Positions 12,405-22,633 of a stretch of DNA of 24,000 nucleotides are shown piece by piece (position 1 is the first letter of the stretch; every line of letters begins with the position of its first letter). The notes below the pieces were generated by a model that worked only from the letters and a program-made list of their open reading frames with translations, was not told the DNA's origin and searched no databases. Source of the DNA: Gelria sp. Kuro-4 (lineage in GTDB: Bacteria > Bacillota > DTU030 > DUMP01); NCBI RefSeq assembly GCF_019668485.1, contig NZ_AP024619.1:2263757-2287756 (forward strand), given 5' to 3'. A program made the position numbers and the translations under genes.

Positions 12405-13509
12405 CTAATTAACCTGGCTTCTCAGATACGCCTTGATAAACGGGTCCAGCTCGCCGTCCATCACCGCCTGCACGTTGCCCATTTGCTCGCCGGTACGGTG
12501 GTCCTTCACCAAGGTATAGGGTTCGAAGATGTACGATCGGATCTGGCTCCCCCAGGCGATCTCCTGCTGCTCCCCGCGCAGGGCGTTGAGCTTGGCCTCT
12601 TCCTCCTTGCGCTTGAGGTCGAAGAGCCGGGCCTGCAGGATGCGCATGGCCGTGAGGCGGTTGGCGTGCTGGGAGCGCTCGTTCTGGCAGGTGACCACAA
12701 TCCCCGTGGGCAGGTGGGTGATGCGCACGGCGGAATCGGTCTTGTTCACGTGCTGGCCGCCCGCCCCGCCGGAGCGATAGGTGTCGATCTTCAGGTCCTC
12801 CGGCCGGATCTCCACCGCCATGTCCTGGTTTACTTCTGGGATCACGTCCAGGGAGGCAAAGGAGGTGTGGCGCCGGCCGGCCGCGTCGAAAGGCGAGTGG
12901 CGCACCAGCCGGTGCACCCCGCGCTCGCCCTTGAGGTACCCGTAGGCGTTGGGCCCGCTCACCAGGAAGGTGGCGCTCTTGATACCGGCCTCTTCGCCCG
13001 GGAGCACATCCCAGAGCTCCACCTTAAAGCCGCTCTTTTCCGCCCAGCGCGTGTACATCCTGAGCAGCATCTCCGCCCAGTCCTGGGCCTCGGTACCGCC
13101 GGCGCCGGCGTGGAGGGAGAGGATGGCGTTCAGGCGGTCGTAGGGGCCGGCCAGCAGCGCCTCCAGGTGCAAATCCTCGTAGTTCCGCTTGAGCTCGGCC
13201 AGCCCCGCCGCCACCTCGTGCGCCGTCTCGGCATCCTCCGCCTCCGCGCCCAGCTCGCAGAGGACGGCAAGGTCCTCTGCCTCTTTGGCCAGCGCCCGGT
13301 AGCGCTCCACCCTTTCCTTGAGGGCGGAAAGCTCCGGCATCACCTTCTCCGCCCGCGCCGGGTCGTCCCAGAAGCCAGGCTTGGCTATTTCCGCTTCCAG
13401 TTCGCGGATGCGGGCCTCTTTGCCTGCGATGTCAAAGAGAGACCCCCATTTCGCGGATGCTGTCCTCCAGCACGTTCAGCTCGCGCTTCAGGTCTTCATA
13501 AAGCAGCAT
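12405..13509 (-). CDS. prfB: Peptide chain release factor 2, two frames joined by a programmed +1 frameshift
   Basis: Frame 0 is ATG 13509 ... GTC TCT CTT TGA (MLLYEDLKRELNVLEDSIREMGVSL*). The +1 frame continues DIAGKEARIRELE... into the 312-aa ORF carrying SPF and GGQHVNKTDSAVRITH (GGQ) motifs. Total ~367 aa. Confidence 0.95.
13431..13447 (-). promoter_or_regulatory. prfB autoregulatory +1 frameshift site (GGGGG-N6-CTT TGA C)
   Basis: The minus strand reads ATGGGGGTCTCTCTTTGAC. The slippery CTT codon, an in-frame TGA followed by C, and an internal SD-like GGGGG upstream match the canonical RF2 frameshift cassette. Confidence 0.9.
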
Positions 13510-13564
13510 TACCATCACTCCCACTCGATCCTTCTTCGCAGGTTTGAGAAAAACAGTGAAAAGT

Positions 13565-16213
<2,649 letters not shown>

Positions 16214-18075: not shown

Positions 18076-18616
18076 CACGGCAACCCGATTCCCGTAGGAA
18101 ACGTCTCCCGGGTTGCCATGGGGACAGGTCAGTCCTCACGGCAAACTCACCTGCCGGAAGAAACGTACCCTGGGTTGCCAGGGGGGACAGGTCGGGCCCT
18201 CGTCTCTACCCCGAATTGCCGACCTGTCCTGCTTGCGCCGGTCATCCCGGCTACACGGCACACCCACCTCCCGACAGAAACGTCTCCCGGGTTGCCATGG
18301 GGACAGGTCAGTCCTCACGGCAAACTCACCTGCCGGAAGAAACGTACCCTGGGTTGCCATGGGGACAGGTCGGGCCCTCGTCTCTACCCCGAATTGCCGA
18401 CCTGTCCTGCTTGCGCCGGTCATCCCGGCTACACGGCACACCCACCTCCCGACAGAAACGTCTCCCAGGGTTGCCATGGGGACAGGTCGGGCCTCACGGC
18501 AAACTCACCTGCCGGAAGAAACGTACCCTGGGTTGCCATGGGGACAGGTCGGGCCCTCGTCTCAACCCTGAATTGCCGACCTGTCCCCATACCGCTAAAC
18601 AGACCTGTCCCCATAC
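18076..18616 (+). repeat. Repeat array C: 179-bp higher-order tandem repeat (~2.8 units) of the nested-palindrome family
   Basis: GGTTGCCATG recurs at 18111, 18290 and 18469 (period 179). Units 1 and 2 differ at only a few positions. Each unit is a 62-bp head-only subunit plus a 117-bp head-loop-tail-linker subunit. An extra partial tail sits at 18601-18614. Confidence 0.93.
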
Positions 18617-18617
18617 A

Positions 18618-18646
18618 TTATTCCCCGCGCCCGAGGAAAATCCTTC
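18618..18646 (-). promoter_or_regulatory. Sigma-H-like promoter candidate upstream of array C and hpf
   Basis: The minus strand reads GAAGGATTT-11 nt-GGGGAATAA. This fits the Bacillus sigma-H consensus as I recall it (RNAGGAWWW-N11-12-RNNGAATWW) at every specified position. Confidence 0.4.
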
Positions 18647-18667
18647 CCGCCCCGCGCAAACCAAAAG

Positions 18668-18692
18668 GGCCTTCGGTGAGCTTCCGAAGGTC
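18668..18692 (-). terminator. Intrinsic terminator of the ABC transporter operon
   Basis: The minus strand reads CCTTCGG-AAGCTCA-CCGAAGG followed by CCCTTTTGGTTTG, 13 nt after the ATPase stop codon. Confidence 0.65.
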
Positions 18693-18704
18693 CGAAGGTC
18701 CAGC

Positions 18705-19427
18705 TTAGAGGATTTTGCTTAAAAACGCCTGGGTGCGCTCATTCTGCGGGTTCTGGAAGATGGCGGCCGGTTTGCCTTCCTCGACGATCTTCCCGTCGTC
18801 CATAAACAGCACCCGGTCACCCACCTCGCGGGCAAAGCCCATCTCGTGGGTCACCACCACCATCGTCATCCCGTCGCGGGCGAGCTGCTTCATCACATCC
18901 AGCACCTCGCCGATCATCTCCGGGTCGAGCGCCGACGTGGGCTCGTCAAAGAGCATCACCTTCGGCTGCATCGCCAGCGCCCGGGCGATGGCCACGCGCT
19001 GCTGCTGCCCCCCGGAAAGCTGCCGCGGGTAGGCGTCCGCCTTCTCGGAAAGCCCCACCTTCGCCAAGAGGTCGCGGGCGATCTCCTCCGACTCCGCTTT
19101 CCCCATTTTGCGCACCTTCTGCGGCGCCAGGGTGATGTTATCCAGCACCGTCATGTGCGGGAAGAGGTTGAAGGACTGGAACACCATCCCCACCTCCTGC
19201 CGCACCCGGTTGATGTTGGTGGCCGAGTGGTTGAGCTTGATCCCGTCCACCACAATCTCGCCCTCGCTCGGCTCCTCCAGGTAGTTGATGCAGCGAAGGA
19301 GCGTCGACTTGCCCGAACCGCTCGGGCCGATGATCACAACAACCTCGCCTTGGTCCACCTTATTCGTAATGCCTTTAAGGACGTGCAGGTGCCCGAAGTG
19401 CTTGTGCACATTCCTAAGCTCGATCAC
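18705..19427 (-). CDS. Polar amino-acid ABC transporter, ATP-binding protein
   Basis: 240 aa: Walker [25 protein letters not shown], Walker [12 protein letters not shown]. GlnQ/HisP-like. GTG start overlaps the permease stop by 14 nt. Confidence 0.95.
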
Positions 19428-20073
19428 CTGTACCCAACCTCCTCTCCGCCCGCCGCACCACTTGGCTGAGGGACAGCGTAAGGATTAGATAGATAACGCC
19501 TACGGTGATGTAAATAGGAAACGGCTCTACCTTGCGCCCCACCATCATCTGCCCGTAGCGCATGAGCTCCGGCACGGCGATGGTGGACATGAGGGCCGAA
19601 TCCTTAAGGAGCGTAATGAATTCGTTGCCCAAGGCCGGCATGATGTTGCGGAAGGCCTGGGGCAGGATAACGTAGCGCATGGACTGACCAAAGGTCATAC
19701 CCAGGGAACGTGCCGCCTCGCGCTGGCCGCGATCGATGGACTGGATGCCGGCGCGCACAATCTCCGAAACATAGGCGCCGCTGTTGATGCTGAAGGCCAG
19801 CCAGCCGGCGAGCTCCGGGGGGAGATTTACGCCCGTCACCTGCGGCAGCCCGTAATACACCAGGAAAAGCTGCACCATAAGCGGCGTGCCGCGGATAACC
19901 TCCACGTAAAAGGTGGCGATGCCATAGATTACGGAGTTCTTGGACAGGCGCGCCATGCCGCCGAAAGTACCGATCATAAGTCCAGTAAGAACGGAAAGAA
20001 ACGTGATCAGAATGGTGACGCGGACGCCGATCAAAAGGAGCGGCATTATCTGCGGGACTACTCCCCAATCCAT
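19414..20073 (-). CDS. Polar amino-acid ABC transporter permease (His/Glu/Gln/Arg/opine family)
   Basis: 219 aa with multiple TM segments and the EAA-type loop [23 protein letters not shown]. Confidence 0.93.
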
Positions 20074-20120
20074 ACCTTGTCAATTTCTCCTCTCCCCAGG
20101 ATGACAAAGAGACACACGAC

Positions 20121-20147
20121 GGCCGGCGGGCAAAGCGCCCGCTGGCC
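20121..20147 (-). promoter_or_regulatory. Intercistronic GC-rich hairpin between the binding-protein and permease genes
   Basis: The minus strand reads GGCCAGCGGGC-GCTTT-GCCCGCCGGCC (11 bp, one mismatch), followed by GTCGTGTGTCTCTTTGTC. Confidence 0.45.
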
Positions 20148-20175
20148 GCCACCTGTGCTCCCCGGTGGTAGTGCT

Positions 20176-21030
20176 TTACTTAAACCACTTATCGTAAATC
20201 TGCTGGTAGGTGCCGTCTTCCTTGAACTTCTTGAGGGCGGCGTTGATCTTGTTCAGGAGATCGGTGTCCTCCTTGCGCAGGGCGATACCGGTGTACTCGG
20301 CCACGAACGGCTTGTCGCTCACCAGCTTAACCTTGTCGGCGTGCTTGTTGGCGTAAGGCACGCCCACCGGCAGGTCCACCACCACGGCGTCCAGGTTCCC
20401 GTTCTGCAGGTCCAGGAACGCCTGCGGGTAGTTGTCGTAGCGCTTGATCTCCTTGATGTCCACCTTTTTGCCTGCGTACTCACCGGTGCCTTCCTGCATG
20501 CGGGTCAGGACCTCATCGGCGGTGGTGCTGATCTGCACGCCGAGCTTCTTGCCGGCGAAGTCCTTCTCACTCTTGATCCCATCGTAGTCCTTGCGAACCA
20601 TAATCACCTGGCCGGCCTCAAAGTACGGGTCCGAGAAGTTCATCTTCTCTTTGCGCTCGTCGGTGATCGTTACGCCGGAGATGATCACGTCGTACTTCTT
20701 GGCGAGCAGCCCGGCGAAGATCGTCTCCCAGGCCACATCGGTGAACTCCACCTTCATCCCCAGCTCCTTGCCCAGGGCGTTGGCCAGGTCGACATCGAAG
20801 CCTTCAAACTCTCCCTTGTCGTTCACACTTTCAAAGGGTGGGAACGCCGCGTTAAAACCTACCCGGAGCACCGGCTGCTCCGCCGGCTGCTGCGCCTGGC
20901 CCTGCTCCGCCGGCTGACCGCCCTCCGCCGGCTTTTGCGGCTCCGCCGCCGGCTTCGAGCTGCAACCCGTCACCAGAAGCGACACCGCCAGGAGAACAAC
21001 CAGGCCGAGAGTGAAGAACTTTTTCACCAC
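20176..21030 (-). CDS. Amino-acid ABC transporter substrate-binding lipoprotein
   Basis: 284 aa. Signal peptide with a lipobox (LLVTGCSS), a low-complexity PAEQ linker, then a type-2 periplasmic-binding fold (GFDVDLANALGKELG..., DVIISGVTITDERK). Confidence 0.92.
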   Translation of the reverse strand: MVKKFFTLGLVVLLAVSLLVTGCSSKPAAEPQKPAEGGQPAEQGQAQQPAEQPVLRVGFNAAFPPFESVNDKGEFEGFDVDLANALGKELGMKVEFTDVAWETIFAGLLAKKYDVIISGVTITDERKEKMNFSDPYFEAGQVIMVRKDYDGIKSEKDFAGKKLGVQISTTADEVLTRMQEGTGEYAGKKVDIKEIKRYDNYPQAFLDLQNGNLDAVVVDLPVGVPYANKHADKVKLVSDKPFVAEYTGIALRKEDTDLLNKINAALKKFKEDGTYQQIYDKWFK

Positions 21031-21072
21031 TTGAACCCCCTGTCCGCGTTATTGCCGTCCTTCATGTTCATC

Positions 21073-21101
21073 ATTATACACGCCGAGGCATAATGTTACA
21101 A
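21073..21101 (-). promoter_or_regulatory. Putative sigma-A promoter of the ABC operon
   Basis: The minus strand reads TTGTAA-17 nt-TATAAT (perfect -10), ~40 nt upstream of the GTG start at 21030. Confidence 0.55.
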
Positions 21102-21350
21102 GTCCCAATTTCAGCCGTGTTGTGCGCCTACGCTCCGCTGCCTCATCAGTATGCATCTTTATGCATATTTATGCCGGTGCCTCTCCCTGAGCTTCGACTC
21201 TCACCGGTCCCCGTTCGGCCCCGATGGCCCGCGTGTGCCGGCTGCCCGCTGCGCGGACAGGTGCAGCGCCTTATGTCACCTGCGGCACCGGCTACAGACC
21301 CGGTTGCATGCTCCTACGGTCCCTATGCCTGCACCGGCGGGCCACTTTCC

Positions 21351-21368
21351 TGTGGATAATGTGGATAA
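21351..21368 (+). promoter_or_regulatory. Two abutting perfect DnaA boxes
   Basis: TGTGGATAATGTGGATAA is two head-to-tail copies of the reverse complement of TTATCCACA. Two 7/9 matches lie nearby in the same orientation (21372-21380 TGTTGAAAA, 21403-21411 TGTGGGCAA). Confidence 0.7.
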
Positions 21369-21486
21369 ACCTGTTGAAAACTTCCGCCTCAGGGGCTTGT
21401 CCTGTGGGCAAACCTGGGGAGAGCTCCGCGCACCGTGTCGAAGTCCCACGAACGGTCCCGGTCCCTGTCGCCTATTGCCGTGGGAG

Positions 21487-21967
21487 TTGCCGACCTGTCC
21501 TATCCTGCGCCGGTCCCCACTGCGCACACGCACACCCACCTGCCGAGAGCAACGGATCCTGGGTTGCCATGGGGACAGGTCGGGCCTCACGGCACACCCA
21601 CCTTCCGACAGAAACGTACCCTGGGTTGCCATGGGGACAGGTCGGGCATGGGGACAGGTCGGGCCCTCAATGGTCACCCTGGATTGCCGACCTGTCCCCC
21701 ACTCCTATCCCCGAATTGCCGACCTGTCCCACCCTGCGCCAGTTCCTACTACGCACACGGCACACCTACCCGCCGAAAGTAACGGATCCTGGGTTGCCAT
21801 GGGGACAGGTCGGGCCCTCGTCTCCTCCCCAGATTGCCGACCTGTCACCTCTCCGGAAGCCTTTGTGCAACTCCACGGCACACCCGACTTCCAAAAGAAA
21901 CGCCTCCAGGGTTGCCATGGGGACAGGTCGGGCCCTCGTCTCTACCCAGAATTGCCGACCTGTCCCC
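21487..21967 (+). repeat. Repeat array D of the nested-palindrome family (5 heads, 5 tails, mosaic order)
   Basis: Orphan tail at 21489. Heads at 21569, 21631, 21648, 21799 and 21917. Tails at 21686, 21718, 21836 (degenerate) and 21954. One nested double hairpin at 21631-21730. Confidence 0.9.
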
Positions 21968-21985
21968 TCTCCTCTAATACAAAAA

Positions 21986-22006
21986 CCCGGGCACCACCTG
22001 CCCGGG
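21986..22006 (-). terminator. Intrinsic terminator of the zinc-ribbon gene
   Basis: The minus strand reads CCCGGGCA-GGTGG-TGCCCGGG followed by TTTTTGTATT, 20 nt after the stop codon. Confidence 0.7.
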
Positions 22007-22025
22007 TAATTTGTCCTTCGTCCGG

Positions 22026-22364: not shown

Positions 22365-22633
22365 ACCATAGCTTAGCTGACCTGGTCTTTGCCCCCACAC
22401 CCGCCTGCTGGAAGTCTCGCTCCGGGCCTTCGCCCCTCACTACTCCTTCTCTCCGGGCCGCTCGGAAAGCCCTGTTCAGAACCGGCCACCCTCCGGTCCT
22501 CAGGCCCCTCCCGCGCTCCCGGGCAGGACTTACCCCTAAGCCGCCCCATGCTCAGCAGTCCTTCAACTGCCTTACGTGGATCGTTTCGCCCGCGGCTGGC
22601 ATCGATTTGCAACCACAGACCTAAGCCATTGGT
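22365..22633 (-). ncRNA. Candidate structured RNA (long 5' leader of the zinc-ribbon gene or an independent ncRNA)
   Basis: ~269 nt, GC-rich and non-coding-looking, directly downstream of a near-consensus promoter. Its first ~25 nt (22633-22609) can pair with 22392-22365 (~20 bp in three segments). It has several internal hairpins (for example AGGACCGG-AGGGUGG-CCGGUUCU). I recognise no Rfam family. Confidence 0.4.

Follow-up and report, generated by a model that had tools for sequence, protein, structure and literature searches.

We find that array D, an intergenic array of palindromes in the genome of Gelria sp. Kuro-4, is probably a hypervariable cluster of tandem copies of a palindromic repeat that is non-coding and restricted to its lineage; the array was inserted after the lineage split from its relatives, evolves in the manner of a minisatellite and has stems that may be read by a protein. 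It is not a new kind of system; it is an ordinary bacterial repeat in a new form. The array lies in a 24,000-nt stretch of contig NZ_AP024619.1 (the window, to whose positions the coordinates below refer unless marked as genomic), and its sequence can be trusted because the Kuro-4 genome (G000) is a hybrid assembly of ONT and short reads. Read on the minus strand of the window, the direction of the neighbouring genes, the array runs from a terminator and a lead sequence through two canonical units and one expanded unit to an orphan left arm, as laid out here.

21985-22007, minus strand: intrinsic terminator of the zinc-ribbon gene (stem-loop and T-run), the left border of array D, fixed in all strains.
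21968-21978, minus strand: lead TTAGAGGAGAG, with the motif TA(A/G)..AGGWGWG, which stands before the first left arm at every locus.
21850-21967, minus strand: canonical unit 1, with left arm L at 21955-21967, loop l1, right arm R at 21919-21931, hairpin S at 21874-21918 and linker X1 at 21850-21873.
21732-21849, minus strand: canonical unit 2, with a degenerate left arm GGTGACAGGTCGG at 21837-21849, R at 21801-21813, S at 21756-21800 and linker X2 at 21732-21755.
21503-21731, minus strand: expanded unit 3, left part, with L at 21719-21731, a short loop, L at 21687-21699, loop l2, R at 21650-21662, ATGC, R at 21633-21645 and S at 21588-21632.
Within 21503-21731, minus strand: remainder of unit 3, with a junction, an extra R at 21571-21583, a second S with a degenerate 3' base, and a linker with a TGCGC..GCGCA stem.
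21490-21502, minus strand: orphan left arm (the orphan tail of an earlier note on this DNA), the right border of array D in every strain, with point changes in some other strains.
21441-21489, minus strand: right junction; about 25 nt are missing in congeners, and the ancestral sequence, which is arm-like, restarts at GACAGGGACCGGGACCG beside the orphan arm.

Every feature that the earlier note had picked out was recovered at its stated position, among them the orphan arm gccgacctgtcc (21489-21500), a subunit of head and linker without loop or tail (21569-21630), two single hairpins (21799-21847 and 21917-21967) and a degenerate arm ending in ...GTCA (21836-21847). The array was also rightly placed directly after the zinc-ribbon terminator (22007-21985, minus strand), which immediately precedes it. 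Unit 3 owes its expansion to one additional copy each of L, R and the R-S block. The small stem that had been proposed as a retained feature of the linker is present as TGCGC-N11-GCGCA at 21506-21526 but is broken in the second copy, and it remains a weak hint. The array as a whole folds more stably as RNA than shuffled sequences (z = -4.0).

The repeat unit measures about 115-120 nt and combines a hairpin with a 13-bp stem, a second hairpin S and a variable linker X. The main hairpin consists of GGGGACAGGTCGG, a loop of 23 nt (23-24 nt among copies) and CCGACCTGTCCCC. On the minus strand, the unit is read as the lead TA(A/G)..AGGWGWG, the left arm L (GGGGACAGGTYGG), the loop, R followed by ATG, S and X. 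Hairpin S has a conserved base, ATGGCAACC / GGTGTGCCGTG, and an interior that varies around CGTTTCT. Across the ten parsed loci of Kuro-4 and all strain alleles, every array follows a shared colinear grammar, (L-sl)n L loop R (ATGC-R)n S (j-R-S)n X, and no permuted or inverted module was found among them.

Chance alone would give about 1.7 copies of the 11-nt arm core on each strand of the 2.88-Mb genome (62% GC), against the 37 and 27 that were observed; the arm clusters therefore lie far beyond chance. Nearly all of these matches fall into about 11 clusters, four of them within the window. The family census stands at 33 left arms, 34 right arms and 23 complete hairpins, distributed over ten loci and one variant locus. 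Between arrays, the arms and the base of S are conserved at 0.90-0.95, the loops at 0.74, the S interior at 0.60 and linker X at 0.50, values which for the cores are partly bounded by the search pattern that located them; this ranking agrees with the earlier reading that head and tail cores are better conserved than loops and linkers. Only one compensatory change was seen in the arms (GGTTGG/CCAACC in array A). Covariation in hairpin S was considered as evidence and set aside, since its base stem is conserved and its interior varies without a consistent helix. Open reading frames that cross the arrays were likewise rejected as genes, because loops of 23 and 24 nt in different copies break the frame.

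The family appears to be confined to this species. It was not found in 40 relatives, its 22-nt core had no match among GTDB representatives, and the right-flank pattern had none among metagenome contigs, a set that may omit records very near the genome of the window. The family motifs gave no match in the literature searched. No known RNA or tRNA lies inside array D, where Rfam 15 returned chance-level matches only (E at least 0.27, none at the gathering score). The sole match in the window that passes the gathering score is a raiA RNA (22368-22629), which precedes the zinc-ribbon gene.

The insertion of array D, immediately 3' of the zinc-ribbon terminator, postdates the split of the Kuro-4 lineage from its congeners. 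Two species of the same genus share the gene order around site D and have the site empty, with the terminator followed almost directly by a region of DnaA boxes, and sites A, B and C are likewise empty in both. Insertion at site A has left prfB about 17 codons shorter, with AAT-TAG contributed by the element; in a comparison of window positions 12405-12470 with one congener (G001), the repeat lead forms the new stop codon of the Kuro-4 prfB. At site B an open frame continues into the hairpin loop. Target-site duplications, which the earlier note proposed to look for beside solo copies, were not recognisable when occupied sites (solo B and arrays A, C and D) were compared with their empty counterparts. 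The elements have inverted arms, and their ends are not sharply definable.

Two further observations concern the neighbourhood of the array. Arrays C and D flank an ABC operon (window 18076-21967), and since this operon sits at the same place in both array-free congeners, it did not arrive with the arrays. At 21351-21368 lies a pair of abutting perfect DnaA boxes, out of 14 perfect boxes in the genome, three more of which are found close to the minimum of the skew (about 0.52 Mb). Both congeners and all strains have this pair at the corresponding position, and it is thus older than, and independent of, array D. DnaA boxes were rejected as a landing pad for the repeats, given that only 14 perfect boxes exist genome-wide and none is near any other array.

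The repeats show a marked relation to gene ends. At 10 of the 11 loci they share the orientation of the upstream gene, at eight of the 11 they start no more than 8 nt from its stop codon or overlap it, and often the repeat itself supplies that stop codon. GC skew places the origin near 0.5 Mb and the terminus near 1.84 Mb. The locus at 961k lies among lagging-strand genes and points in the direction of those genes, so orientation appears to track transcription or gene ends and not replication; a replication-direction rule was discarded on the strength of this single case, which transcription direction fits better.

A selected role at the RNA level would likewise be compatible with the orientation rule and with repeats that begin no further than 8 nt from stop codons: as hairpins of 3' UTRs or leaders, the repeats would stabilise the upstream mRNA, act in transcription termination or attenuation or give rise to small RNAs, with array size tuning expression. 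Both hairpins are predicted to be stable on folding, the inclusion of the lagging-strand locus 961k is in keeping with such a role, and REPs are reported as 3' UTR regulators. Yet array D sits between the strong intrinsic terminator of the zinc-ribbon gene and the promoter of the ABC operon (21101-21073, minus strand), and it should therefore be poorly transcribed; placed there, it probably has little effect on its neighbours. The stems, moreover, are invariant and do not covary, the S interior lacks a consistent helix, no Rfam family matches, copy number is free to vary between strains, and the congeners live without the repeats. We consider a selected RNA role unlikely.

Ten further contigs encode a zinc-ribbon protein identical to that of Kuro-4, and six of them span the spacer that holds array D. 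Spacers at this site measure 795, 915, 995 (Kuro-4) and 1185 nt. The flanks are near-identical across alleles, with the orphan arm as the constant right border. Between these fixed edges we found five distinct module strings, with L008 as a sixth allele that the contig end cuts short; strings are given below with slashes between units.

Kuro-4 (G000): l1S1X1 / l1S2X2 / sl-l2-RR-S3-j-R-S-Xd
L001 (= L004): l3S2X2 / l4S1X1 / l2-RR-S4-Xd
L002: l3S1X1 / sl-l2-S1X1 / l2-RR-S2X2 / l4S1X1 / l1S4Xd
L003 (= L005 = L009): l1S5X1 / l1-RR-S2X2
L008: l3S1X1 / sl-l2-S5X2, cut by the contig end soon after the array

Since strains carry other strings of the same modules between near-identical flanks, decay of a single fixed element does not account for array D. 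Loops l1 and l2 occur with S types S1 and S2 in all four combinations across the alleles, which requires exchange inside the core formed by R and ATGGCAACC. Once the stretch between its first and fourth R is taken out, L002 gives allele L001, apart from differences within one hairpin block; this deletion runs from one right arm to another. The modular shuffling proposed in the earlier note thus stands as far as reassortment at the cores is concerned, on the evidence of the four loop/S combinations and of the L001/L002 deletion, but the different order of modules that it invoked does not, all arrays being colinear. Site B tells of similar change: it holds a solo hairpin in Kuro-4 and a multi-unit array in another strain, and the Kuro-4 lead at this site matches the product of a deletion between two ATAGG words.

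The stretch at 21631-21730, made up of two heads, a loop and two tails, had been described as a nested double hairpin. Its arms are all present, but nesting by insertion of one hairpin into another does not hold. The l2 hairpin occurs in three forms, L l2 RR, L sl L l2 R and L sl L l2 RR; because the extra L and the extra R occur separately or together, the nested form represents two independent tandem duplications. The extra arms are exact tandem duplications of either a 17-nt R block or a block of about 33 nt comprising lead and L.

These observations also bear on a model in which the modules are separately mobile, with hairpins or arm pairs acting as miniature transposons that insert in or beside existing copies, so that nesting reflects self-insertion and the mosaic repeated transposition. 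The arms are inverted repeats, as such a model would have them, about 11 loci have been reached that are empty in the congeners, the loci are clumped (four within 10 kb of the window, and 557k and 562k only 5 kb apart), and Y1 transposase genes are present in the genome. Set against this are the unbalanced arm counts (1L+2R, 2L+1R, 2L+3R and 3L+1R), on which, together with the independence of extra L and extra R, the self-insertion account of the nested hairpin was rejected; the exact tandem nature of the extra arms; and, at the level of whole loci, the want of any target-site duplication and the constant order of modules. Separate mobility of the modules is accordingly quite improbable. That the allelic diversity is an assembly artefact, with one array everywhere and short-read assemblers collapsing or mis-joining it at the cores, is highly improbable: every allele apart from that of Kuro-4 comes from metagenome or MAG assemblies built from short reads, in which repeat collapse or chimerism would mimic recombination at the cores, and L002 holds three near-identical stretches of about 90-100 nt able to confuse de Bruijn graphs, but identical structures came from independent samples and pipelines (L001, an NCBI MAG, equals L004, an ENA biogas assembly; L003, L005 and L009 are the same; L006 and L007 agree with L002), the cores, at most about 31 nt, fall below the k of 127/141 in the contig names, and module variants and flank SNPs differ between alleles in ways that collapse cannot create.

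The comparison of alleles supports an array that varies by tandem duplication and deletion of contiguous sub-blocks together with in-register reassortment, much as a minisatellite does. In mechanistic terms, replication slippage or unequal homologous exchange between near-identical stems duplicates, deletes and reassorts sub-blocks, and yields the extra left arms, the extra right arms, the R-S subunits and the orphan border arm; loops and linkers are free to drift. The stems, for their part, may be invariant in sequence, and not merely complementary, because they are read by a protein. The likeliest reader would be a Y1 transposase of the RAYT type, which may have seeded the few loci.

In behaviour, the family is of the REP/BIME or MIRU sort, yet it fails the tests that define REPs and BIMEs. 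[quoted passage not shown] Like the REPs and BIMEs of enterobacteria, pseudomonads and Stenotrophomonas, the Gelria elements are GC-rich intergenic palindromes that lie mostly downstream of genes, form composite arrays with variable linkers, have stems better conserved than loops and share their genome with homologues of Y1 (IS200-like) transposases. Unlike REPs, the Gelria arms have no GTAG or CGTC head, being preceded by CATG/GTATG and followed by ATGG. The Gelria stem of 13 bp encloses a loop of 23-24 nt in a hairpin of about 50 nt, whereas the interruption of a REP stem is 2-4 nt, and Gelria has about 33 arms of each type at 10-11 loci in place of more than 100 copies. The Gelria units are direct tandem repeats, asymmetric in loop, S and X and all pointing one way, in contrast to the alternating arrangement of BIMEs, and they include a second hairpin.

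BOX elements of Streptococcus pneumoniae are composed of boxA, a variable number of boxB modules and boxC in fixed order, and are intergenic with predicted stable folds. Array D resembles this general description in being a fixed-order modular mosaic with a variable count of an internal module; it differs in that sequences and host are unrelated and that BOX has distinct end modules. With tandem units at a fixed locus, a number of units that varies between strains and constant flanks, as seen in the metagenome-assembled alleles, array D has the make-up of a minisatellite or VNTR. MIRUs reportedly share the orientation of their flanking genes and overlap the stop and start codons of those genes. 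In Mycobacterium tuberculosis, MIRU-VNTR units, which measure from tens of bp to about 100 bp, are arranged in tandem at a few dozen intergenic loci, and strains differ in the number of copies (PMC3914561). The intergenic tandem units of Gelria and their strain-dependent copy number are alike in kind, but MIRUs lack a long perfect palindrome and a two-hairpin unit, and in Gelria single-arm blocks vary as well.

The candidate reader of the stems leads to the two long Y1_Tnp genes of Kuro-4. The first (genomic positions 761515-762480; L011:1016-1981) encodes a protein of 321 aa with a Y1_Tnp (IS200-like) domain and a Bac_DnaA_C HTH. In the REP/RAYT system the cognate Y1 gene is flanked by two inverted copies of the repeat, and RAYT genes have also been described whose bounding long terminal inverted repeats form moderately abundant families as well (Di Nocera et al. 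2013, PMC3733652). The first Kuro-4 gene, which is RAYT1-like, resembles the latter: it is bounded by perfect 20-nt inverted repeats that start with GGGGTCAGGT and contain a 16-mer found about 53 times in the genome. Over its first ten bases this bounding repeat has one mismatch to the array arm, and past 10 nt the similarity is weak; a variant locus at 82 kb is intermediate between the two. The second gene (255 aa; genomic positions 778729-779496, in the region 778000-786000, L012) is ringed by about eight copies of a hairpin repeat, GCTGCCATGGGGACGGTTCTTGTGGCAGGTC, which has the 12-mer TGCCATGGGGAC in common with the array family. This 12-mer occurs 21 times in the genome, 19 times in the array family and twice near the second Y1 gene.

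The array family itself, in distinction from both RAYT arrangements, flanks neither gene, other repeats doing so in each case, and no array arm with up to three mismatches was found in the 3-kb loci of either. This counts against mobilisation of the family by a RAYT, which is proposed by analogy. No homologue of the Kuro-4 Y1 genes was found in the two congeners, which are MAGs only 90-92% complete.

The repeat that bounds the first Y1 gene contains a DnaA-box-like word, TTTCCAC. The units of this second repeat family, each about 45 nt long, begin with the invariant 16-mer GGGGTCAGGTATCAAC; Kuro-4 has about 53 copies, often directly after stop codons. Two copies in inverted orientation, at genomic positions 761323 and 762577, bound the first Y1 gene, and a copy in the window (13563-13578, minus strand) supplies the last codons of secA and its TAA stop. 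This second family was not found in 25 relatives.

Outside the genus, exact 13-nt arms with unrelated loops of about 30 nt occur after stop codons in soil metagenome contigs and in an Actinomycetes MAG. These hairpins (L019, L021 and L022-L057) carry GTTGACC/GGTCAAC extensions and lie between convergent genes. A RAYT gene between paired soil hairpins was considered and rejected: the intervening gene in L022 is aminopeptidase-like, and tblastn detected no RAYT in 40 contigs. In a Gemmatimonadales MAG (G042; L072-L079), about 140 copies of the 13-mer, allowing up to one mismatch, are organised in composite repeats. These repeats also hold GGGGACGTGTCCCC palindromes and 15-nt tandem runs. Two of the repeat units lie about 70 nt downstream of the stop of the only Y1 gene in that MAG, a proximity whose chance probability we estimate roughly at 2%, and the encoded protein is 33-39% identical to the Gelria Y1 proteins.

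We take the cross-phylum arm as a lead toward sequence-specific recognition by a subfamily of Y1 transposases, not as a demonstration of it. A broader and rather doubtful proposal is that the arm GGGGACAGGTCGG and the GGGGTCAGGT end mark cross-phylum, non-GTAG palindromes read by one long-Y1 subfamily in Gelria (Bacillota), soil Actinomycetes and Gemmatimonadales, with the Gelria arrays as active substrates, directed to the ends of genes and equipped with stop codons of their own.

Nothing in array D itself suggests a new mechanism. Site D offers a clean natural series of palindromic array evolution, with fixed borders, a reshuffled interior and all breakpoints within conserved stems. As markers, the arrays would allow Gelria strains in anaerobic digesters to be typed, and, if confirmed, the identity of the arm in three phyla, in one case beside a Y1 gene, would extend REP/RAYT biology past the GTAG and CGTC classes.
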